A stretch of DNA of 36,928 nucleotides from a virus, in the IMG/VR virus record IMGVR_UViG_3300026283_000001, one strand, 5' to 3'. This document shows positions 8,655-21,800 of this stretch, piece by piece (within the stretch, counting starts at the first letter, position 1; the number at the start of each line of letters is the position of its first letter). The notes below the pieces were generated by a model. It did no database searches, was not told the DNA's origin, and saw only the letters and a list, made by a program, of their open reading frames with translations. The position numbers and the translations under genes were made by a program.

Positions 8655-8680
8655 AAAAAACCGCCCGAAGGCGTTTTGTT
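8655..8680. terminator. Weak A/T-flanked hairpin between convergent genes (possible bidirectional terminator)
   Basis: aaaaaaccgcc-cgaa-ggcgttttgtt: 4 G-C pairs (8662-8665 / 8670-8673), extendable by A-T pairs. A-run upstream and T-run downstream. Confidence 0.4.
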
Positions 8681-8721
8681 GTGACAGGTGGATGGTGGGA
8701 TGCTGCTTTCAGATCGCCTGC

Positions 8722-9150
8722 CTAAATCCTTTGTTTTCTGTCAGTTTTTGATTGAAAAACTTCTAGATTGGACGGTTCGTTGTTTTGCTTATTTCCATCT
8801 TTGTGCCGAACAATTTCTGATCGAGAAAGCTCTCTTCCGATGATCTCTTCCATCACCATGCGATGCTCTGCAGCGTAACTACCAGACCCGGATAAATGGT
8901 GGTTTGGAGCGTACAAGAAACAACAGCCTTTGCGATAAATCACCCCTCCGTTCCAGTTTGGATGGAACCGTCCACGCCGCGGGCCGCTTTTTTGGGTGAC
9001 TAGCTTAAGTCTCTTACAGGATCGGCTAACCCAGCTTAACGAAACGCCTAGAATTTTGGCCGCTTTATGCTGCGGCATCTTTTGCACTTCTATTAAATGG
9101 CGGAGTTTCGCTTCTAGGTCGTCGCGATCCCGCTTTGCGATCTTTCTCAT
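8722..9150 (-). CDS. HNH (HNH_3-type) homing-like endonuclease with N-terminal HTH
   Basis: YAAEHRMVMEEIIGRELSRSEIVRHKDGNKQNNEPSNLEVF gives the H-x-DG-x3-NN-x3-NL signature. The N-terminus MPQHKAAKILGVSLSWVSRS is HTH-like. G+C is visibly lower than in the flanks. Confidence 0.85.
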   Translation of the reverse strand: MRKIAKRDRDDLEAKLRHLIEVQKMPQHKAAKILGVSLSWVSRSCKRLKLVTQKSGPRRGRFHPNWNGGVIYRKGCCFLYAPNHHLSGSGSYAAEHRMVMEEIIGRELSRSEIVRHKDGNKQNNEPSNLEVFQSKTDRKQRI

Positions 9151-9380
9151 CTAAATCTCATTGTTTGTTCGATGACGCATTGTGCGCCATCGTGGTTTTG
9201 TTTTTCGTCTGCGGAAAGCTTTCCGTCCAGCCAATCCCGCAGCGCCCGTGGCCCTCCGCGCCTCACGTACTCTGCGCGCTGCTGCTCGCTGACGCGGGCG
9301 GTGATCTTGGCCACCTGCCCGCGTGGCGCGATGGTCGGCTGGCGCCCCTGGCCTGGGGCGTTGCCTTTGCGACTTGTCAT
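9147..9380 (-). CDS. Small DNA-binding protein, ribbon-helix-helix-like (77 aa)
   Basis: KITARVSEQQRAEYVRRGGPRALRDWL fits a beta-strand/helix/helix RHH core. ATGA coupling to genes on both sides. Confidence 0.55.
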   Translation of the reverse strand: MTSRKGNAPGQGRQPTIAPRGQVAKITARVSEQQRAEYVRRGGPRALRDWLDGKLSADEKQNHDGAQCVIEQTMRFR

Positions 9381-9670
9381 GCTTCAGCCTTGTTGTTTGC
9401 GCGAACCATCGCCCGATACTCGCGCCGGATTAGTGCGGGCAGTTTGTCGATACTGGAGCAGTGCAGCGTGCTGCCGCGGCTGGACAGCCTTTCGCACACC
9501 TGCGCAGTATTGCCACGGCCAATGTGCTCGATCACGTAACCTCCGTCGCGCGGGCATGAGAATGTGCGCGTCTTGCGGATTGTCTCGTAATTGTCGAAAT
9601 CAGGAGACTCGGCGTCGAATTCAACTGAAACGCTTGCGTCGAACTTGTCGGTGGTGAATTTTGCTTTCAT
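9377..9670 (-). CDS. Hypothetical protein (97 aa), first gene of the inverted cassette
   Basis: ORF 9377..9718 from the internal ATG (MKAKFTTDKF), preceded by AAGGAGA. Confidence 0.65.
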   Translation of the reverse strand: MKAKFTTDKFDASVSVEFDAESPDFDNYETIRKTRTFSCPRDGGYVIEHIGRGNTAQVCERLSSRGSTLHCSSIDKLPALIRREYRAMVRANNKAEA

Positions 9671-9703
9671 GGTGGTTCTCCTTGGTTGTTGTGTGTCGAT
9701 AGC

Positions 9704-9734
9704 TGTATTGTACGACAATACAAAGAAGAGTCAA
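9704..9734 (-). promoter_or_regulatory. Promoter of the inverted cassette with an overlapping 19-bp palindromic operator
   Basis: Minus strand TTGACT (9734-9729), 16-nt spacer, TACAAT (9712-9707). A perfect inverted repeat TGTATTGT-acg-ACAATACA (9704-9722) covers the -10. Confidence 0.6.
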
Positions 9735-12043: not shown

Positions 12044-14155
12044 ATGAAGCAGAAAAGCAAAGCCGACGACGACATCATCGCCGAGGCCAACGCTCGGTAC
12101 GCCCGCTGCTTGGCGTTCGAGGCGGACAATCTCAAGGAGGCGCGAGACGATTTTCAGAAGCTGGCGGGCAATCACTGGCCCGCAGAAGCTGCGCAGCAGC
12201 GCGCAATCGAGCGCCGTCCGTGCATCACGATCAACAAATTGCCCGCGTTTTTGCACACGGTAACGAACGACCAGCGACAGAACAAGCTCGGCATCAAGGT
12301 GCATCCGGTCGATGATGGCGCGGACATCAAAACCGCCGACGTGCTGCAGGGGCTGATTCGCCACGTGGAGTACGAAAGCGGAGCCGATGCGGCATACGAC
12401 ACCGCAGGATTCCATGCTGCCGCCTGTGGTTTCGGGTTTTTCCGCATTCGCACCGAGTACGACCGCGAAGATTCATTTGACCAAGTCGCAAGGTTCGAAC
12501 GCTTCCGCTCTCCGTTTTCGGTGCATCCGGATCCGGACGCAAAAGAGCCTGACGGAAGCGATCAGGATTTTTGTTTTGTGGACGGCACGATCGCGCGATC
12601 CGAAGTCAAGCGCGACCATCCCGGCGCGTCGGCGGCAGTCTCGAACGAGAGCGACGGCACGGACGACGTGATGCTGCTCTGCTCGGAATATTACCGGGTC
12701 GAGCAGTCGCCGGCCGCGCTTGTGCGCCTGAGCAACGGCGAAACGGGCTGGAAAGATGACGTGATCGAACTGCCGTTCGGCGTCACGATTGTCGATGAGC
12801 GCAAGAGCAGGCGCCGAAAAGTCATGTGGTACAAGCTCTCGTCTTCTGAGTCTGTCGAGCGCGGCGCGGTCGGCATGCCAGGCAGCTCAACGACGTTCAC
12901 GGATGTGCTTGAGCGCGCCGAGATTCCCTGCCGATGGATCCCGGTTTTCCCGGTCTATGGCGAGGAACTGGAGATCGACTCGAAAGTCGTTCGCTCCGGG
13001 CTGATTCGGCACGCCAAAGGCCCGTCAGTGATGTACGACTACTGGATGACCGCGGCGACAGAGGAAGTCACGCTGCGCCCCAAAACGCCATTCATCGGCG
13101 CCGAGGGACAGTTCGAGGGTCACGAGAAGAAATGGCGCGCGGCGAATGTGCAGACGTTCGCGTATCTGGAATACAAGCCGCGCACGATTGGAGGTAGTCT
13201 CGCGCCTCCTCCGCAGCGACAGCCGATGGCCGACATCCCGTCTGGCGTGCTGCAGATGGCGATGCACGCCGCGGACGAAATCAAATCAACAACCGGCATT
13301 TTCGATTCGTCTCTCGGCGCCCGCGGTACGGCCACAAGCGGCATTCAGGAGCGCGAGCAAAAGCGCCAGGGCAACGTCGCAAACTTCCACTTCTCGGACA
13401 ACCTGACGCGCGCGGTGCGCCATGCAGGGCGCTGCCTCGTGGACATGATCCCGCGGATTTACGACACGGAGCGCGTCGTCCGCATTCTCGGCGATGACGA
13501 GAAGGTATCGCACACGACGATCAATCAGCCGCTCGAGCGTCCGGAGATTGATGAGAAGACCGGCGCCATTCGCACGGTATTGAACGATCTGACGGTCGGC
13601 AAATACGACGTGACCGTATCCGCAGGCGCCAGCTACTCGACACGCAGGCAGGAAGCCTCTGATGCGATGGTTTCGTTTGGCCAGTCCTGGCCGAAGCTGA
13701 TGGACGTTGCAGGTGACAAGGTTGTCACGGCGATGGACTGGCCAGGCGCCGAAGAAATCGCGGAGCGCATCAAGCGCACGATCCCGCCCGAATTGCTCGG
13801 CGATGATGGCGAAGAGGGCGGCGAACAATGGAAACAACTGCCGCCGCAAGTGCTGCAGATCGTCCAGCAAGCGCAGCAGCACATTCAACAGCTCGAAGCC
13901 GAACTGCAGGACGCAAAGACCGGCATCGAAAAGGCGCGCATCAGCGCCGAGTCGTCCGAGCGAGTCGCACAGATCAACGCCAACGGCCGGCAGGACGTGG
14001 AAGAGCTGAAAGGCTGGATTTCGATGCTCATGCAGAGCATGCAACCGCCGCCAGCACTCAACGCCGCGGCGATGCAGACCCAAGAACAGCAGCAAGAACC
14101 AATCGCGCAGGGGCCGGGCCAGCCTCCTGAATTCGCGCCCGGCCAGCAGTTTTGA
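12044..14155 (+). CDS. Portal protein (P22-like)
   Basis: 703 aa, directly after terL. The N-terminus (ARYARCLAFEADNLKEARDDFQKLAGNHWP...RPCITINKLPAF) fits the P22-type portal pattern. GAGGA RBS. Confidence 0.9.
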   Translation: MKQKSKADDDIIAEANARYARCLAFEADNLKEARDDFQKLAGNHWPAEAAQQRAIERRPCITINKLPAFLHTVTNDQRQNKLGIKVHPVDDGADIKTADVLQGLIRHVEYESGADAAYDTAGFHAAACGFGFFRIRTEYDREDSFDQVARFERFRSPFSVHPDPDAKEPDGSDQDFCFVDGTIARSEVKRDHPGASAAVSNESDGTDDVMLLCSEYYRVEQSPAALVRLSNGETGWKDDVIELPFGVTIVDERKSRRRKVMWYKLSSSESVERGAVGMPGSSTTFTDVLERAEIPCRWIPVFPVYGEELEIDSKVVRSGLIRHAKGPSVMYDYWMTAATEEVTLRPKTPFIGAEGQFEGHEKKWRAANVQTFAYLEYKPRTIGGSLAPPPQRQPMADIPSGVLQMAMHAADEIKSTTGIFDSSLGARGTATSGIQEREQKRQGNVANFHFSDNLTRAVRHAGRCLVDMIPRIYDTERVVRILGDDEKVSHTTINQPLERPEIDEKTGAIRTVLNDLTVGKYDVTVSAGASYSTRRQEASDAMVSFGQSWPKLMDVAGDKVVTAMDWPGAEEIAERIKRTIPPELLGDDGEEGGEQWKQLPPQVLQIVQQAQQHIQQLEAELQDAKTGIEKARISAESSERVAQINANGRQDVEELKGWISMLMQSMQPPPALNAAAMQTQEQQQEPIAQGPGQPPEFAPGQQF

Positions 14156-14169
14156 TCGTGGAGCCATCC

Positions 14170-15003
14170 ATGCAGGAAGCACAAGAGCAGCAAACATCGT
14201 CGCCGGCAGACGCAAGCAGTGAAGCGCCGGAAACCGTAACCGAGGAACTACAGCAGTCCGAGCAGCAGGAAGCCGCAGAGAAGCCCGAAGAGGGCGACGA
14301 AGGCGACGACCAAGGCGGCGAGGAAAAGCCGCAGGAGAAGCCAAAGCGCAGCGCTCGTGAGCGTATCAACGAGTTGACGAAGCGGGCGCACGAGGCAGAG
14401 CGAGAGGCGCAGCGCTGGCGCGAAGCCGCCGAGAGAAAGACGGCTGATCCCTCCGAGAAGCCAAACCCTGACAAATTCGGTTCGTATGACGAGTACGTCG
14501 AGGCGTTGGCGGACTGGAAAGCTGATCAGCGGGTCGCCGAGTCGTTCAAGAGGCGCGATGCCGAGCGGTCGCAGGCGGCAGAGGCGCGGGCGGCAGAAGC
14601 CAAGGCGCAAGCCTGGGCAGAGCGGCAGAGCGAATTCCGCGAAGCCACGCCGGACTATGACGCAGTTGTAGGAAAGTCGGCTGTGCAAATTGCGCCGCAC
14701 GTCGTCGACACGCTGCTCGACAGCGAATCGGGGCCGGAGCTTGCTTATCACCTCGCCAAACGCCCGGAAACGGTCAAGCGCATCAATGCACTGTCTCCGC
14801 TCTCGGCAGCGCGAGAACTCGGACGGATCGAGGCAACGCTATCGAATCCGGCCGCGCCACAATTCAAGCCGGCCAGCAAAGCGCCTGCGCCGATTACGCC
14901 AGCTCGCTCTTCCGCGCCTGCGGCAGTCGACTTGGCATCTGCAAACATGGACCAGTACATCGCCGCACGTCGCAAACAAGGCGCGACATTCAGGCGGCGG
15001 TAA
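14170..15003 (+). CDS. Scaffolding protein
   Basis: ORF 14152..15003 from the ATG at 14170 (GGAG 6 nt upstream). Acidic, Ala/Glu/Arg-rich helical protein between portal and coat. Confidence 0.75.
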   Translation: MQEAQEQQTSSPADASSEAPETVTEELQQSEQQEAAEKPEEGDEGDDQGGEEKPQEKPKRSARERINELTKRAHEAEREAQRWREAAERKTADPSEKPNPDKFGSYDEYVEALADWKADQRVAESFKRRDAERSQAAEARAAEAKAQAWAERQSEFREATPDYDAVVGKSAVQIAPHVVDTLLDSESGPELAYHLAKRPETVKRINALSPLSAARELGRIEATLSNPAAPQFKPASKAPAPITPARSSAPAAVDLASANMDQYIAARRKQGATFRRR

Positions 15004-15029: not shown

Positions 15030-16244
15030 ATGAGTAATACACTGCTGACCAGCAGCATTCTGGCCAAGGAGACCCTGGCCGTCATTGAAAATAACTGTGC
15101 GTTCGGCGGCATGGTCAATCGCGATTATGAAACCGTACAGAGCGCGTCGATGCGGGACGGCTACGAGCCTGGAGCGACGATCAACATCCGCAAGCCGTCG
15201 CGCTATACGTATCGGTCCGGGCGCGTCTCTGTGCCGCAGGCATCCGCCGACAACTCTGTTCCGCTGAGGCTTTCGCAGGGCGGCGCGGATTTGAACTTCA
15301 ACCTGTTCGAGCGCTCGCTGCAGATCACCGATCGGCGCATCCAGAAGAAGATCAACGCCGCCGCGGCGACCATCGTCAACGAGATCGACCGAGTTGGCCT
15401 GCTGCTCGCCAAGACGGCCGTCTACAACTGCCTGAACCCGACCGGCGCGCTGCCGACGACGCAAGCGCTGTCGCTGGCGGCCATCACCGGCATCAATCAG
15501 CGCCTCGACGAAATGGGCGCGCCTCGCGACAACATGCGCGGCCTGATCATGAACCCGGCCATGAACGCGGCGACGGTTGGTGGTTTCGCCGGGCTGTTCA
15601 ACGGCCAGGCAAAGCTCGGGCGGCAGTTCGACTCGGGGCTGATGGTCGATAGCCTGGGCCTGTCGTATGCGATGGACCAGAATGTCGCGGTGCATACCAA
15701 CGGCGCAGCCACTGCCACGAACATCAACGGCGCCGGCCAAACGGGGGCGGCGATTACGGTCGTTGCAGTCGCTGGCGGCACGCTGGCGGCCGGTACGGTC
15801 ATCACCCTACCGGGCGTCTATGCGGTCAATCCGCAGTCGCGCGTGAGCACTGGCGTTCTGGCCGATTTCGTGGTGACTGCGGACGTTTCCGCCGCGGCCA
15901 CGTCGATCCCGATCAGTCCGGCAATCGTCACCAGTGGGCCATATCAGAACGTCACGGCTTCGCCGACGACTGGCCAGCCGTATGTGATCAAGGGAGCGGC
16001 TTCGACTTCCTACGGCTGCAATGTGGGATTCCACGAGGACGCGTTTACCCTCGCCATGGTTCCGATGGCAACGCCTCCGGACGGCACCGGCGCGCGCGTT
16101 GAGCAAATCTCGCACAACGGTTACACGATCAAGGTGACGGACTTCTACGACGGCACGAACGACAACGTAGTCACTCGTCTAGATGTGCTGTTTGGGTGGG
16201 CCGCGACGTATCCCGAGCTGGCCTGCAAGTACTACACAGTCTAA
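15030..16244 (+). CDS. Major capsid protein (P22 gp5 coat-like)
   Basis: 404 aa. The N-terminus ILAKETLAVIENNCAFGGMVNRDYE......GATINIRKPSRY matches the P22 coat-family pattern, and the position after the scaffold fits. Confidence 0.9.
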   Translation: MSNTLLTSSILAKETLAVIENNCAFGGMVNRDYETVQSASMRDGYEPGATINIRKPSRYTYRSGRVSVPQASADNSVPLRLSQGGADLNFNLFERSLQITDRRIQKKINAAAATIVNEIDRVGLLLAKTAVYNCLNPTGALPTTQALSLAAITGINQRLDEMGAPRDNMRGLIMNPAMNAATVGGFAGLFNGQAKLGRQFDSGLMVDSLGLSYAMDQNVAVHTNGAATATNINGAGQTGAAITVVAVAGGTLAAGTVITLPGVYAVNPQSRVSTGVLADFVVTADVSAAATSIPISPAIVTSGPYQNVTASPTTGQPYVIKGAASTSYGCNVGFHEDAFTLAMVPMATPPDGTGARVEQISHNGYTIKVTDFYDGTNDNVVTRLDVLFGWAATYPELACKYYTV

Positions 16245-16264: not shown

Positions 16265-16290
16265 GCGCCGGGGTTCTCCCCGGCGCATTT
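16265..16290 (+). terminator. Stem-loop after the coat gene (attenuator / RNA stabiliser)
   Basis: GCGCCGGGG (16265-16273), TTCT loop, CCCCGGCGC (16278-16286), then only ATTT. Strong stem but short U-tail. Confidence 0.5.
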
Positions 16291-16302
16291 GGAGTATAGA
16301 GA

Positions 16303-17772
16303 ATGGCTAATGTTGCTGTTACTTGCATAAAAAACGGTAGATCAGACTCTTTCGGCCGGCCGCTTGTTTCTGGAACGTATTACCCGTCTGTCGAGATTGA
16401 GACGGCAAAAGCTCTGTGGAATTCCGGGTATGTTTCCGTGGCAGATGCGTCCGTGTTCGACCAAGACCCGCTGGCCGGAACGAGCCCGCTTGACGATTTC
16501 AATATCTCCAGGGCTTTATCTTTAACGCGCCAACCGAGCCAAACTGCAGCCAACATCTCTGCGGAGCTTGCGGCGGTTGGGTTTGGGTCTGGTCCGCGCA
16601 AAATCTACGCAGGGGCAAGCATTGTTGATTGCGGTACGCTTCCACTGGTATCAGGAACCGGCGTTACAGTGGAAATGGTTGTAACACCTCCAGGCGGCGC
16701 ATCCGCCAGGAAGACTAATCACGGACTTTCTGCGAAAGTAGTTAGTCCACCAGGGGCGTCAGCGCAGATTTATGGGGCAATTGCTAACCCAACTTTAGTT
16801 AATGAAAGATTCGATTTTTGGGTATATTCATCAAGTGATAACGAAACTCCTGCAAGCGTCTCGCTCTATTTTGTGGTCGCGTCGGCGTTCGCAGGCAATT
16901 ATTACCTTAAAACGTGGCCTTTAACAAAGAGGGCAGGATGGCATCATCTGTCGTGCTTGAAGTCGGATTTTGAAGCCACGGGGTCTCCGACGTGGGCAGG
17001 AGTGACGCACTACCGGGCATATTTCTTCGACGCATCAGTAACGACATCACTGACGATAGACAGGATAACTGGCGGCGCGAACGAAACACCGTTGGTCGCC
17101 CTTTGTTTTGATGCTTGTTGGGCGGGGCAATATAAATACGCCGTGCAGCTACTGAATAAATATCGCCTAATCGGCAACATCTCCGTAGTGCCTACCGCTG
17201 TAGGCCAGGCATCTTATATGTCTGCAGAACAGCTCAAGGAAGTTGCAGGAATGGGACACAGACTCATCTGCCACGGCAGCAACACGGCAAGCTCTTTTGG
17301 AACACTACAGCTGGCGAAGGACGACTTGGACGCAACAAAAACATACCTTGACTCGTTGGGAGTTCCTGTCGATTCCGATGTTCATCTATGGCATTCCGGC
17401 GAAAGCTGGCATGGGGCAGATTATGAATCCCTCCCGAATTATCTACGTGACACGGGGAGAGTTGGGGCGTTCCATTCTGGGTTGAACATATCAACTTCCG
17501 AGATGCGAGGCAGGGCATACCGAATCCCTCGGATGGACGACAGCGGAAATGGATCAACGTCTTCAGCGACTGTGCTCGCACAGATTGATGGGTTTTTAAC
17601 CGCCGGATACAGTTTTGCGACAAAGACCCATGACGTCGTCGCTAGTGGAGCGACGGTAAGCCAGGCGAATGTAGCCACACTCGAAGCAGTTCTATCGGGG
17701 ATTGCTGACAGGCAGGCAGCGGGGAAATGCCTTGTTGTGAGTGCAAGGGAGTTCGCTATTAGAAATACATAA
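16303..17772 (+). CDS. Low-GC protein: jelly-roll/CBM-like middle region plus C-terminal NodB (polysaccharide deacetylase)-like domain
   Basis: 489 aa with its own RBS (GGAG). From aa ~262, PLVALCFDACWAGQYKYAVQLLNKYRLIGNISVVP...YMSAEQLKEVAGMGHRLICHGSN parallels NodB motifs (TFDDG ... L.k..ikaTfF ... eql.el...GheigsH). Aa ~165-255 look like a carbohydrate-binding beta-sandwich. Confidence 0.7.
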   Translation: MANVAVTCIKNGRSDSFGRPLVSGTYYPSVEIETAKALWNSGYVSVADASVFDQDPLAGTSPLDDFNISRALSLTRQPSQTAANISAELAAVGFGSGPRKIYAGASIVDCGTLPLVSGTGVTVEMVVTPPGGASARKTNHGLSAKVVSPPGASAQIYGAIANPTLVNERFDFWVYSSSDNETPASVSLYFVVASAFAGNYYLKTWPLTKRAGWHHLSCLKSDFEATGSPTWAGVTHYRAYFFDASVTTSLTIDRITGGANETPLVALCFDACWAGQYKYAVQLLNKYRLIGNISVVPTAVGQASYMSAEQLKEVAGMGHRLICHGSNTASSFGTLQLAKDDLDATKTYLDSLGVPVDSDVHLWHSGESWHGADYESLPNYLRDTGRVGAFHSGLNISTSEMRGRAYRIPRMDDSGNGSTSSATVLAQIDGFLTAGYSFATKTHDVVASGATVSQANVATLEAVLSGIADRQAAGKCLVVSAREFAIRNT

Positions 17773-17818
17773 TGCACCTGATGTAGCAAGCATTCGTCAG
17801 GCTGAAAGAGCCCCCTGC

Positions 17819-17830
17819 TTGTAACGTCAA
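17819..17830 (+). repeat. 12-bp direct repeat TTGTAACGTCAA, copy 1
   Basis: Exact 12-mer also present at 18061-18072. The pair brackets most of the 323-bp non-coding gap. Confidence 0.9.
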
Positions 17831-18060
17831 CCCACTCGCCTTATCCGCTTGACACCGCCCGCGTAAAACGACCCCATGGATCCCAACGCCACATGATAAC
17901 CCGCCGCCGAAACATCGATCGATGGCCGCTGGCAAATGACCACAGTCTCACAAGCCTCCGAATACCTCTCGCGCCGGATCGAGCAAGGATTCAGCGACTA
18001 TCAAATCAAGATATGCACCTCGGAATTGAATCTCTACGCCATAGAGGTAGCGAGCGAGGT

Positions 18061-18072
18061 TTGTAACGTCAA
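18061..18072 (+). repeat. 12-bp direct repeat TTGTAACGTCAA, copy 2
   Basis: Exact copy of 17819-17830, located 24 nt before the gp4-like start. Confidence 0.9.
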
Positions 18073-18095
18073 ATGACACAAGAAGGCGATAAAAC

Positions 18096-18821
18096 ATGAC
18101 AACTGCGCTACAGCTTGTAACCGCATCCTTGCGCAAACTCGGAGCAGTCGCGGCCGGAGAGGCGCCAGACGCGAGCGAGCAGTCGGATGCGCTGGCCGCT
18201 TTGAATCAGCTTATCGAAAGCTGGAATCTCAAAGGGTTGGCGCTGTACCGGCGCGAGAATGCCTCCTACACGCTCACTCCGAGCCAGCAGGTATATACCA
18301 TCGGCAGCGGCGCAGACTTCGACGGCGCGCGCCCGGTTACGCTGCATGGGGCTTTTGTGACGCGCGGCGGGATCGACCATCCCCTTGATCCGCTGACGCA
18401 AGCGCAATGGAACGACATTCTGCAGAAATCGACGAAATCACATATCCCGGAATCCATCTATTACGAGCCGACCTTTCCTGATGGCACGCTTCGATTCTGG
18501 CCGGTGCCGCTTGAAGCTCTGACGGTTACACTCGCTATCGACATGCAGATTTCTGCAATTGCAGCCATCGGAGACACCATATCCCTGCCGCCAGGATACG
18601 AGCGAGCGTTGATCTACGCGCTGGCTGTCGATATTGCGCCGGAATACCCTGCTGTGACGCTGAGTCAGACCGTGATCGACGCCGCAGATGATGCGCTGGC
18701 AGACATCAAGCGGGCGAACAACACACAGAACCATCCTGCGAGGTTCGACATTGCGCTGTCCGGCGGATTGGGAATCGGCCAAGGAAGCGGGTCGTTAGCG
18801 CGCTTCATGGCTGGAATCTGA
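18096..18821 (+). CDS. Head-to-tail adaptor, P22 gp4-like
   Basis: QLVTASLRKLGAVAAGEAPDASEQSDALAALNQLIESW parallels P22 gp4 [40 protein letters not shown]. Position downstream of the coat gene fits. Confidence 0.8.
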   Translation: MTTALQLVTASLRKLGAVAAGEAPDASEQSDALAALNQLIESWNLKGLALYRRENASYTLTPSQQVYTIGSGADFDGARPVTLHGAFVTRGGIDHPLDPLTQAQWNDILQKSTKSHIPESIYYEPTFPDGTLRFWPVPLEALTVTLAIDMQISAIAAIGDTISLPPGYERALIYALAVDIAPEYPAVTLSQTVIDAADDALADIKRANNTQNHPARFDIALSGGLGIGQGSGSLARFMAGI

Positions 18822-18824
18822 CCA

Positions 18825-19202
18825 ATGAGAATCCCACTCGCTGCCGACATCGAAAGCCGCGACGGCACGATGTCGGCAGGGGCGTTGCTCGTCAATGCAG
18901 CAGCGCAGATTGAGGGCGAGGCAGAAACGACAGTATTCAAGCGGGCTGGAGTCGTTTCGCGCGGGTCGGTAACGGCTGGCACTGCGCAGTGCTTCACAGG
19001 ACTGGCCGGGAAGGCCGTTGCGGTCGTTGGCGATCACGCCTTCACGCTGACCGTTGGTGAGCCGATAATCGAGGATGCAGACGACGACCTGTCGCCGATA
19101 TTTGCCGGACTGCAAGTGTCCGCGCGCGAGGCGGGCCAGGCAAGCAACGCGCGATCGCTGATGATCAAGACCGGCCGCGAAGCGTGGATACTGACGCCGT
19201 GA
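18825..19202 (+). CDS. Virion protein (125 aa) carrying a gp10-type N-terminal motif
   Basis: MRIPLAADIESRDG...LLVNAAAQIEGEAETTVFKRAG resembles the N-terminus of the next gene and of P22 gp10-family proteins. Confidence 0.65.
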   Translation: MRIPLAADIESRDGTMSAGALLVNAAAQIEGEAETTVFKRAGVVSRGSVTAGTAQCFTGLAGKAVAVVGDHAFTLTVGEPIIEDADDDLSPIFAGLQVSAREAGQASNARSLMIKTGREAWILTP

Positions 19203-20225: not shown

Positions 20226-21800
20226 ATGCCAGTCCTCGCCGTGACCGTTGCTGGACAGCCATTCGACATGATGGGGTATGTCGCCGAGCAGTCAGTTTTC
20301 GGCCTGTTCTTCAAATCTGCATACGATGCATTCAATTTCGAGAATAACGTGCTGACAAAAATCACCGACGCAGATTATCCCGGATGGAGCACGGTCACGC
20401 CGACAAGCATAACGCGAACTGGGTCGACTGCGACGGTCACGCTGCCTGCGCCAGTCAACTGGCAATCTGGATCGACCGTGACAATCGCTGGCGCTGCACA
20501 AGCTGAATACAACGGCAGCGTTCTGATTACCGTCACTGATGCGACGCACTTCACTTACGCAGTCACCGGGACTCCGACGACGCCGGCAACGGGCACGATA
20601 ACCGCGAAGGGCGGGCGAACTACGGTGCCAGGGGTCGCCTATCTGGACGGGTATTTCTTCGTCATGGACCAGAATGCCGTTATCTACAACAGCGGGCTGA
20701 ATGACCCGACAGCCTGGGGCGCGCTGGACTTCATAACTGCGGCTATCGAGCCTGGCGGCGGAGTTGCGCTGGCCAAGACGCAGAACTACATCGTCGCGTT
20801 CAAGGAATGGAGCACAGAATTTTTCTACGACGTCGGCAATCCAACGGGGTCCCCGCTGTCGCCTGTGCTGTCCGCATTTACGCTTGTTGGCTGCGCTTCC
20901 GGCGAGTCGGTCGCGGAGCTTGATGAGACGGTCTATTGGATCTCGAAGGCGCGGCAGAAGGGGCGGGCGGTCCACAAAATGGTCGGCCTGCAACAGCAGC
21001 TTGTCAGCACGCCGGACATTGACCGCATCCTGGCAACGTCGGACCTATCGAGCGTCTACGCCTATGGCGTCAAGCTGTCCGGGCATTCGTTCTACATCTT
21101 GGGCCTGCGCGACATTGACGTGACGCTGGCCTATGACGCGACGGCTGGAACCTGGGCGCAATGGTCGAGCTTGACGGCGCAAACGCCGAAGTCATGCACG
21201 CTCACGCAGTCGGGCGGCGTGGCGACCGCGGCATGCACGGCGCACGGCTACGCAGACGGGGCGGCGGTCACGATCGCGGGGGCAACGCCAAGCGACTACA
21301 ACGGCCTGAAACAGATTCGCGTCACATCCGCCGACGCCTTCATATTCAGCGTCGCCAGCGGCGCCGCAAGCCCGGCGACGGGCACGATTACGGCGACCGG
21401 GTACGACGAGGGCTACTTCCGGTACACGCACTATGTGTCTGCGGCCGGCCGCGACCTTGTTCTGCACGAAACGACCGGAGCGCTTGTCGAAATCACTCCG
21501 GCCGCCTACACCGACGACGGCGCCCCGATCGCGCTGAAGCTCCGCACAGGCAAGCTCGACAGCGGCAACGAGAACTACAAGAGCATTGGTCAGATTCGCG
21601 TCATCGGCGAGAAGCAGGGCGGCGAGGCGATGCTGCGATGGTCGGACGACGACTACACGACGAACTCGGCCTGCCGTCCTGTTGATCTGTCGTCGGTGCA
21701 GGCGCGCATTCGGCGGTGCGGGGCGTATCGGCGCAGAAGTTTTGAAGTGCTGCACATCGCCGCATTGCCGGTGCAGCTTGAAGCGCTCGAATTGGACTGA
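20226..21800 (+). CDS. Tail hub protein, P22 gp10-like body with two inserted ~70-aa domains
   Basis: NYIVAFKEWSTEFFYDVGN parallels P22 gp10 DFIVCFGSSTIEYFSLTG. The C-terminus ARIRRCGAYRRRSFEVLHIAALPVQLEALELD parallels KRVGRIRRLIGFKLRVITKSPVTLSGCQIRLE. Confidence 0.8.
   Translation: MPVLAVTVAGQPFDMMGYVAEQSVFGLFFKSAYDAFNFENNVLTKITDADYPGWSTVTPTSITRTGSTATVTLPAPVNWQSGSTVTIAGAAQAEYNGSVLITVTDATHFTYAVTGTPTTPATGTITAKGGRTTVPGVAYLDGYFFVMDQNAVIYNSGLNDPTAWGALDFITAAIEPGGGVALAKTQNYIVAFKEWSTEFFYDVGNPTGSPLSPVLSAFTLVGCASGESVAELDETVYWISKARQKGRAVHKMVGLQQQLVSTPDIDRILATSDLSSVYAYGVKLSGHSFYILGLRDIDVTLAYDATAGTWAQWSSLTAQTPKSCTLTQSGGVATAACTAHGYADGAAVTIAGATPSDYNGLKQIRVTSADAFIFSVASGAASPATGTITATGYDEGYFRYTHYVSAAGRDLVLHETTGALVEITPAAYTDDGAPIALKLRTGKLDSGNENYKSIGQIRVIGEKQGGEAMLRWSDDDYTTNSACRPVDLSSVQARIRRCGAYRRRSFEVLHIAALPVQLEALELD

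Follow-up and report, generated by a model that had tools for sequence, protein, structure and literature searches.

In the archaeal siphovirus HFTV1, the turret head protein (THP; gp31, PDB 8QPG) forms a trimer on the capsid hexamers, contains a Zn site and has been proposed to provide reversible adhesion to host glycans (PMC12494034). Its authors described it as having no homology to bacteriophage proteins and no homologues in other haloarchaeal viruses (PMC12494034). The Dec protein of phage L is also a trimer; it holds the capsid with N-terminal legs and points a C-terminal stalk outward, and a role in glycan adhesion is suspected (PMC6449081). Here we analyze a gene for a protein of 489 amino acids (aa) in a viral DNA stretch of 36,928 nucleotides (nt) (IMG/VR record IMGVR_UViG_3300026283_000001), which in its full length we call the window and which, with its lysis candidates and early genes, reads as a complete phage genome of ~37 kb. 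The 489-aa protein is modular, in that a conserved anchor carries an exchanged head composed of a carbohydrate-binding module (CBM) and a CE4-like domain. The best reading of its sequence is that it is carried by the virion and sets host specificity.

It is useful to contrast this protein with each of the known systems. Like HFTV1 THP, it has a short N-terminal docking segment, a galactose-binding-like β-sandwich and a CE4-like barrel, in the same order. The base and head proteins of HFTV1 are also paralleled by a split gene pair in EBPR podovirus 1, although the anchor there lies on the first protein. The differences are considerable. THP has its Zn site, whereas the 489-aa protein keeps one of three metal ligands. 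THP inserts a β-stalk into the turret base hexamer, whereas the 489-aa protein begins with a β-β-α-β unit and helices, and no base gene accompanies it. HFTV1 is a siphovirus of an archaeal host, and the capsid location of THP is proven, whereas for the 489-aa protein the capsid is one of two candidate locations.

Tailspikes of the P22/Sf6 type provide another comparison. A conserved N-terminal dock, a recombination junction and exchanged glycan-active C-termini in near-identical phages are common to both; the virion type is the same, and the portal, coat, gp4-like and gp10-like neighbors are all P22-type. However, nothing resembling the gp9 head-binding domain was found in the 489-aa protein by Pfam, PHROG, PDB or Foldseek comparisons. 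Its AlphaFold2 model contains no right-handed β-helix, but a β-sandwich and an α/β barrel instead. Its anchor measures only ~52–93 aa, and its gene follows the coat gene, whereas the tailspike gene of phage PBR31 follows the ejection protein genes. Dec shares the P22-type capsid setting and the N-terminal anchoring but uses an OB-fold, which finds no match in the anchor model of the 489-aa protein, and Dec has neither a CBM or enzymatic payload nor cassette exchange.

The head itself resembles the CE4/NodB enzymes (PdaC 6H8L, Bc1960 4L1G, SpPgdA 2C1G, PgaB 4U10 and 6DQ3) in fold, and it shares their base Asp, their first ligand His and the His of motif 5. It differs from them in three ways: Ala replaces the metal-ligand Asp, a deletion removes the second ligand His, and the YP motif is altered. 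The same CBM+CE4 family includes Gordonia phage genes annotated as “glucosaminyl deacetylase” or “minor tail protein” and Bacillus phage G gp673, which have canonical HxxxH motifs, other N-termini and long-tailed virions. Among them, gp24 of Gordonia phage Fitzgerald is followed directly by the head-to-tail adaptor gene, an arrangement like that of the 489-aa gene and its own adaptor gene, whereas in Gordonia phage Phistory the lysis genes come first and the family member follows within a “minor tail” block.

Conserved anchor and exchanged cassette

The locus consists of the following elements.
15030..16244, + strand: P22-type coat gene (Pfam/PHROG), always directly upstream of the anchor-bearing gene
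16303..17772, + strand: open reading frame (ORF) of 489 aa, ATG start (reading-frame list)
16303..16461, + strand: anchor core, aa 1–53, modeled as a small β-β-α-β unit
16462..16581, + strand: linker and helical neck, aa 54–93, two predicted helices, ending in a conserved junction
16582..17772, + strand: exchanged C-terminal cassette, aa 94–489 plus stop, G+C 0.512
17773..18095, + strand: noncoding cassette tail, 323 nt, between the stop and the adaptor ATG
18096..18821, + strand: gp4-like head-tail adaptor gene, in all cases the first conserved gene after the anchor-bearing one

In a blastn comparison, the window and EBPR podovirus 1 (JF412294.1) share 97–99% DNA identity except in two replaced blocks. 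One of these occupies 16581–18090, from codon ~93 of the 489-aa gene up to a point 5 nt short of the adaptor ATG; DNA homology ends at 16580 and restarts at 18091. A sequence-only reading of this DNA had taken the gene to be inserted between the coat and adaptor genes. Instead, it is a conserved slot with a swapped C-terminal cassette, because the post-coat slot is conserved in all relatives and only the cassette and the 323-nt gap are exchanged. In >15 related phages, this slot holds a gene whose N-terminal anchor of ~52–93 aa is nearly identical and ends in AELAAIG. The order of coat gene, ~60 nt, anchor-bearing gene, variable DNA and adaptor gene recurs in 12 viral contigs and in three contigs (L025–L027) that carry the protein P0001; the coat-to-anchor-gene spacing at the window locus is 58 nt.

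The proteins tell the same story of exchange. About 20 proteins found by word-index search match the 489-aa protein in the first ~93 residues only, with 70–95% identity, and range in length from 286 to 822 aa with mutually unrelated C-termini. Their payloads include CE4 deacetylases (PF01522), GDSL/SGNH esterases (PF13472, PF00657), SASA sialate-O-acetylesterase (PF03629), M14 carboxypeptidase (PF00246) and LamG-type lectins (PF13385). The 822-aa protein is BNR-like, with two Asp-box motifs recognized by eye and a weak Pfam score. P0001 has a C-terminus 100% identical to that of the 489-aa protein behind a different stretch of ~60 residues. A conserved N-terminus, unrelated C-termini and a sharp boundary in near-identical genomes, as expected of a modular receptor-binding protein, are thus present.

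Base composition follows the same boundary. Within the ORF, G+C is 0.534 in codons 1–93 and 0.512 (0.484 at third codon positions, GC3) in codons 94–489, compared with 0.624 (GC3 0.795) in the coat gene and 0.596 in the whole window. The visibly lower G+C noted from the sequence alone is therefore real. The compositional analysis proposed at the same time extends it to all nine cassettes examined, which have values of 0.505–0.540 versus 0.57–0.62 in their backbones.

The anchor exists in two types. The 52-aa core of type A is 100% identical across seven phages, and type B, which is 61–63% identical to type A, occurs on the same backbone, in some forms with a linker ~30 residues shorter. Both alleles terminate in the junction AN(I/L)(S/A)AELAA(V/I)G. 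An otherwise unrelated family member, P0035, has the same AELAAIG-type junction behind a quite different N-terminus, consistent with a common recombination joint. From its model, the core of aa 1–53 is presumed to be the virion-docking domain. A Foldseek comparison of the anchor model, which is of moderate confidence, with the PDB gave a best E of 0.34 and had no tailspike, OB-fold or Dec among its matches; GINS, L9-N and lambda gpFI-C, at E 0.3–1.1, were considered as fold relatives and taken as chance. The anchor also showed no similarity to the small after-coat proteins of Rhodoferax phage P26218, Vibrio phage VvAW1 and PBR31.

Downstream of the cassette, the adaptor gene and the 125-aa gene (p125) behave as a variable island. 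Their products are 75–87% identical between phages whose coat, 343-aa (p343) and gp10-like proteins are 97–100% identical, and the island alleles reassort independently of anchor type and of each other. L026, for example, matches EBPR podovirus 1 with 100% identity in p125 and 80% in the adaptor, and it combines a type-B anchor with a coat 99.5% identical to that of the window. Only two adaptor columns discriminate the anchor types, adaptor identities do not cluster by type, and the adaptor of the window is closest to that of a type-B carrier. The variability of the adaptor and p125 is probably due to linkage, as part of the same island as the cassette. The cassette tail contains a 12-bp direct repeat, TTGTAACGTCAA, at 17819 and 18061, with the same two copies in L026. 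It also contains a 46-codon ORF (17936–18076), which at its N-terminus shares 61% identity (E 5e-13) with an 89-aa ORF located before the adaptor gene in L021 and L024. By this similarity, the 46-codon ORF is the truncated remains of a conserved small gene of the cassettes.

In EBPR podovirus 1 itself, the two modules are encoded separately. The anchor-bearing gp34 (317 aa) stops at TAA, and an in-frame GTG directly after it, with GAGG 11 nt upstream, opens a 463-aa ORF (L001 12955–14346; JF412294.1 19473–20864, minus strand) that encodes a CBM-like domain and a canonical CE4 domain (TDDG, HGASH; PF01522 on record). The GenBank “gp33” starts at an internal Met, has 338 aa and cuts the β-sandwich; judged by the sequence, it is probably mis-started. 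The 463-aa ORF is unlikely to be reached by readthrough of the gp34 stop, as the TAA and the GAGG fit stop-start coupling. The same pair of genes is found in L013 and L025. That anchor and CBM-CE4 payload are separate proteins in EBPR podovirus 1 and fused in the 489-aa protein is good evidence that the two act together.

Some anchor genes have companions. Beside short anchor genes lie L014 5890–6441, L017 7548–7994, L021 1675–2109 and L022 6938–7369. The L014 companion contains DUF4376 (E 2.9e-14) and matches PHROGs labeled “tail protein” and “tail fiber protein”, and the P0004 cassette matches a “tail protein” PHROG, both at the level of annotation. The L017 and L021 companions (148 and 144 aa) are alike, share a GTELCTI..TYF motif and may be assembly chaperones. 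Separately, L025 (JGI Ga0078786_100008, 84.9 kb) contains a repeat of the structural segment, from a partial coat gene through anchor gene, cassette and adaptor to p125 and p338, together with an N run; the two tandem cassettes differ from each other. The contig seems to be a chimeric assembly of coexisting cassette variants and not a real array.

Fold and active site of the payload

The payload is made up of two predicted domains.
16612..17073, + strand: CBM-like β-sandwich, ~aa 104–257, galactose-binding-like, of CBM11/61/16 type (AlphaFold2 and Foldseek)
17092..17769, + strand: NodB/CE4-like α/β barrel, ~aa 264–489 (AlphaFold2, Foldseek and family profile)

Both had been proposed from the sequence, with structure prediction and a metal-site check named as the way to decide. 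An AlphaFold2 model built on a 14-sequence alignment of the window protein and locus-derived homologues agrees with the proposal. It has a mean predicted local distance difference test score (pLDDT) of 82.8 and a predicted template modeling (TM) score of 0.83, with an all-β domain followed by an α/β barrel whose core exceeds a pLDDT of 90. Foldseek ranks chain TA of the HFTV1 turret structure 8QPG first in the PDB, with E 1.2e-17 and TM-scores of 0.56/0.55 over 411 columns and both domains. This is eight orders of magnitude ahead of any single-domain match, although identity in the structural alignment is 14%. Single-domain matches are to CBM11, CBM61 and CBM16 and to the CE4 enzymes PdaC, Bc1960, T48 and SpPgdA; target-normalized TM-scores to CE4 structures, including PdaC, Bc1960, T48 and 5JMU, are 0.62–0.66. 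Among BFVD models, the matches include HFTV1 gp31 (A0A410N6W3, E 2e-16), Bacillus phage G gp673 (query-normalized TM-score 0.73) and an “esterase” of Arthrobacter phage Qui.

The sequence-level evidence differs between the two comparisons. Against the 489-aa protein alone, PF01522 scores 20.2 bits (E 6e-4), below its gathering score of 23.1 bits. A profile of the family, however, matches CE4 structures by sequence, with 6DQ3 at E 8.6e-16, PgaB 4U10 at 8e-13 and others to 1e-6; the NodB assignment is thus sound despite the subthreshold Pfam score. In contrast, 8QPG was not among the family-profile matches to the PDB at E < 0.1 (hmmsearch list to E 0.12), so the link to the turret head is one of fold and architecture only.

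The payload family is large. An exhaustive search with residues 95–489 found at least 450 representative clusters at E ≤ 1e-3, many of which align over all 395 residues behind N-termini of their own. Word-index searches with the C-terminal part or the family profile returned one to three proteins, and the family is seen only by the exhaustive search of representatives. One alignment-based search for related loci in genome contigs gave no confirmed relative. The family member P0060 matches Gordonia phage genes in tblastn with ~24% identity over ~89% of its length and E values to 1e-21. Polyubiquitin also matched the family profile (E 1e-21 to 1e-26), but this is an artifact in which nine repeats of ~8–10 bits are summed; single ubiquitin gives a nonsignificant E of 0.07–0.3, and the region is β-sandwich in the model. 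The ubiquitin-like stretch lies at profile positions ~51–107 (~aa 100–150 of the window protein, nt ~16600–16750), pairs with ubiquitin residues ~30–76 and has the consensus ..IFSGKlleDfeTLTGwsv..gaTLaLV..

In L002, L004, L005, L007, L028 and L029/30, a homologue of the cassette is encoded in the interval from the major capsid gene to the head-tail adaptor gene, ahead of the major-tail and tape-measure genes. The cultured Gordonia phage Fitzgerald (L034) has the order capsid gene 18, esterase gene 23, glucosaminyl deacetylase gene 24, head-to-tail adaptor gene 25 and tape measure gene 31, in which genes 23–24 form a glycan-active pair within the head/neck block. The module also occurs in tail-like blocks, namely as Phistory gene 36 and in L003. 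Since the payload is portable in this way, synteny elsewhere cannot decide where it sits in the virion. In siphovirus contigs, too, the CBM-CE4 homologue has an unusual composition; the one at L028 1195–2622 has a GC3 of 0.64 versus ~0.9 in its neighbors. A small gene often precedes the siphovirus homologues (L028, L004, L005, L002 and L029); the products of these small genes include proteins of 203 aa (phrog_1084), 142 aa (phrog_10473), 194 aa (phrog_2941, “virion structural protein”) and 122 aa (phrog_786). They are candidate analogues of a turret base protein.

The active site was compared with 152 family members, with the following result.
D270, catalytic base: conserved in 151/152; D in the 489-aa protein
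D271, metal ligand: Asp in 139/152, Ala in 2; Ala in the 489-aa protein
H324, first ligand His: conserved in 147/152; H in the 489-aa protein
Second ligand His: present in 74 and absent in 73 of 152; absent in the 489-aa protein
Pro of the YP motif (364): conserved in 135/152; His in the 489-aa protein, with the RxPY/YP motif altered
H443, catalytic acid (motif 5): conserved in 148/152; H in the 489-aa protein

The motif readings CFDAC and CHGSN made from the sequence were correct, and correspond to C268-F-D270-A271-C272 and C323-H324-G-S-N. Of the CE4 motifs, motif 1 (TFDD) and motif 2 (H(S/T)xxH) are incomplete and motif 5 is present. In the profile-to-structure alignment, the first of the two metal-ligand histidines of 6DQ3 (HTVNH) and PgaB (HTDNLH) pairs with H324, and the second falls in a segment deleted in the 489-aa protein. 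H319, within GH(D/R), was considered as a substitute ligand but aligns with a nonligand position of canonical CE4 enzymes. The metal triad is therefore incomplete, as had been supposed, with H324 the one ligand of three that is kept. The wider claim of degenerate motifs holds in part. D271A and P364H are, by the family alignment, specific to this lineage, whereas loss of the second His is common to 73 of the 152 members and marks a large subfamily rather than a degeneration of this protein's own.

Given the established CE4 mechanism, the loss of two of the three metal ligands makes classical Zn-dependent catalysis unlikely. The cassette, on this sequence evidence, is most likely a lectin-like adhesin or a weak, atypical esterase rather than a Zn-dependent deacetylase. 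It is doubtful that it is a working carbohydrate esterase, with D270 as base, H443 as acid and H324 assisted by water or another ligand, that would deacetylate the receptor polysaccharide in the manner of G7C-type esterase tailspikes. Such activity would fit the retention of D270, H324 and H443, each 97–99% conserved in the family. It would also fit the strong conservation of DD, H, YP and H in the half of the family (73 of 152 members) that lacks the second His, which points to selection for catalysis or binding. Metal-independent NodB-fold enzymes are known, such as the PuuE allantoinase. However, the Ala at position 271 is shared by only two family members versus 139 with Asp, the YP proline that 135 members keep is replaced by His, and substitution of the metal-ligand Asp abolishes activity in characterized CE4 enzymes such as SpPgdA. 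The proteins compared here suggest an enzyme-to-lectin series, which runs from the canonical CE4 of the 463-aa protein through the single-His subfamily to the 489-aa protein, with a single His and D271A.

Virion location and proposed role

Our preferred reading, which we regard as evenly poised between right and wrong, is that the 489-aa gene encodes an exchangeable host-glycan-recognition appendage of EBPR-podovirus-1-like P22-type phages, a tail-proximal equivalent of a tailspike. We place it near the tail because the genome holds no other receptor-binding candidate and because sister cassettes carry tailspike-type enzymes or tail-fiber-type companions. Pfam and PHROG scans of the window proteins found no other fiber or spike family, in line with the earlier remark that no classical tailspike or fiber gene is present elsewhere. 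PBR31, P26218 and VvAW1, as relatives, have spikes, short fibers or collar fibers in slots that are empty or different in the window. The range of payloads is that of tailspikes and favors a tail-proximal location; esterase tailspikes are reportedly an established class (Moo19/B2). In podoviruses, moreover, neck and tail are practically the same place.

In the mechanism that we propose, the 489-aa protein would join the virion through aa 1–53 and oligomerize through the two helices of aa 62–93 (a low-confidence part of the model), probably as a trimer held by this helical neck. Three CBM-CE4 heads would bind acetylated host polysaccharide, mainly as a lectin, with Candidatus Accumulibacter-type extracellular polysaccharide or O-antigen as the putative ligand. 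Recombination at the AELAAIG junction and at the adaptor gene start would swap the head and so retarget the phage. In the least certain step, the protein would be seated around the tail-proximal adaptor/gp10 ring and act there as a functional tailspike equivalent.

A number of observations weigh against this picture. Lying between the coat and adaptor genes, the gene has a position typical of head-accessory genes, not of P22-type tailspike genes, and seven unrelated long-tailed phage lineages have a cassette homologue in the capsid-to-adaptor slot. The top structural match of the 489-aa protein is a capsid protein. The anchor gave no PDB match in profile search and no PHROG or Pfam match. Its type (A or B) shows no covariation with coat, portal, scaffold, adaptor, p125, p343 or gp10-like proteins, and the adaptor is thus not picked out as a partner. 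The neck helices have a pLDDT of 52–56 in the monomer model, which weakens the case for a trimer. Finally, p343 and p125 could be true tail receptor-binding proteins. These two have no similarity to the short tail fiber pair of P26218 or to any PDB chain, and their relatives among annotated phages are those of EBPR podovirus 1 only.

Several of these points favor the capsid, and we take seriously, while leaning away from it, the possibility that the protein is a capsid turret or head fiber. Its anchor would then dock on the P22-type coat lattice, either at the hexon center or, like Dec on phage L, at a three-fold or quasi-three-fold site. As in HFTV1, the CBM-CE4 head would project and make reversible first contact with host glycans, and irreversible binding would be left to as yet unrecognized tail proteins, for which p343, p125 and the 70-aa domains within the gp10-like protein are candidates. 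The anchor gene follows the coat gene by ~58 nt in every relative, and the anchor is invariant like the coat (97–100%), whereas the adaptor varies. The best fold match across both domains is the turret head protein of HFTV1, the two-protein arrangement of EBPR podovirus 1 resembles the HFTV1 base and head, and homologues lie between capsid and adaptor genes in the contigs listed above and in Fitzgerald. Dec provides a precedent for an N-terminally anchored trimer with a protruding stalk on a P22-type capsid (PMC6449081). The THP likeness, however, is structural only, the anchor resembles neither the THP stalk nor the Dec OB-fold nor phi29 gp8.5, and no turret-base gene lies between the coat gene and the 489-aa gene. 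The gene lies 3′ of a strong hairpin, grouped with low-copy neck genes, and the module also occurs in the tail-like blocks of Phistory and L003. The diversity of payloads (SGNH, SASA, M14 and the BNR-like protein of 822 aa) and the DUF4376 companion are typical of tail fibers and spikes. A turret would also leave the phage with no recognizable tail receptor-binding protein, a situation for which we know of no precedent among podoviruses.

Both locations assume a virion protein. It is very improbable that the gene is instead a nonstructural moron, whose product, a cytoplasmic or released deacetylase or esterase, would modify host polysaccharide or aid lysis outside the virion. CE4 and SGNH enzymes do occur as nonstructural phage genes, low G+C is typical of morons, and PBR31 annotations include a [quoted passage not shown] and a lysis-associated SGNH esterase. 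Yet the gene lies inside the late structural operon, between coat and adaptor, with no promoter of its own, and the N-terminus has neither a signal peptide nor a transmembrane segment in its sequence. An invariant N-terminus on swappable payloads that include pure LamG lectins fits a docking anchor and not a soluble enzyme; the metal site is crippled, and the closest structural relative is a virion protein. The sequence-only reading had named two options, namely that the protein binds the receptor or modifies glycans, or that it decorates the capsid. These are still the two leading readings, but the sequence-only reading had missed the modularity of anchor and cassette and the closest relative, HFTV1 THP.

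Modular receptor-binding proteins and CE4- or SGNH-bearing phage appendages are known kinds. What is new is a minimal anchor of ~52 aa that has no recognized fold relative and is encoded directly after a P22-type coat gene. Also new is that, within the EBPR podovirus lineage, the post-coat slot is a hot spot for cassettes, with >10 payloads on one anchor. New as well, by structural modeling, is that the HFTV1 turret head architecture has many bacteriophage counterparts, mostly in head/neck gene modules, which contradicts the view, published in 2025, of this design as HFTV1-specific. Candidates exist in cultured phages, such as Gordonia phage Fitzgerald gp24 and Bacillus phage G gp673. Tentatively, the CBM+CE4 “turret head” might be an ancient and widespread head/neck adhesion device of bacteriophages that forms capsid turrets on EBPR-podovirus-1-like phages. 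If the capsid location were true, podovirus host range would be tuned by swapping capsid-borne rather than tail-borne modules. The gene is a candidate host-specificity determinant of the best-known phage lineage of sludge from enhanced biological phosphorus removal (EBPR) in wastewater treatment. It could be used to follow phage–Accumulibacter arms races in metagenomic time series, and fluorescent payload fusions could tag uncultured hosts.

Flanking signals and neighboring genes

The remaining features of the region are these.
12044–14155: portal gene, P22-type head/neck module
14152–15003: scaffold gene, P22-type head/neck module
16265..16286, + strand: G+C-rich 9-bp hairpin, GCGCCGGGG-TTCT-CCCCGGCGC, 3′ of the coat stop (folding and shuffles)
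16291..16294, + strand: GGAG ribosome-binding site, 8 nt 5′ of the ATG
18825–19202: 125-aa gene (p125), 3′ of the adaptor gene, function unassigned
Between the p125 and gp10-like genes: 343-aa gene (p343), function unassigned
20226–21800: gp10-like gene, P22-type neighbor, with ejection protein genes also in the module

The stem-loop after the coat gene and the ribosome-binding site of the gene's own, both noted from the sequence alone, are borne out. The hairpin folds at −25.8 kcal/mol (z = −3.44 versus shuffles), and equally good folding occurred in 2/200 shuffles. It has no U-tract and is therefore not a canonical terminator; it is probably an mRNA-stabilizing or attenuating structure. The other replaced block relative to EBPR podovirus 1 lies at 8664–9729 (~1.07 kb), between the Q-like/late-promoter region and TerS, with flanks that are 98–99% identical.

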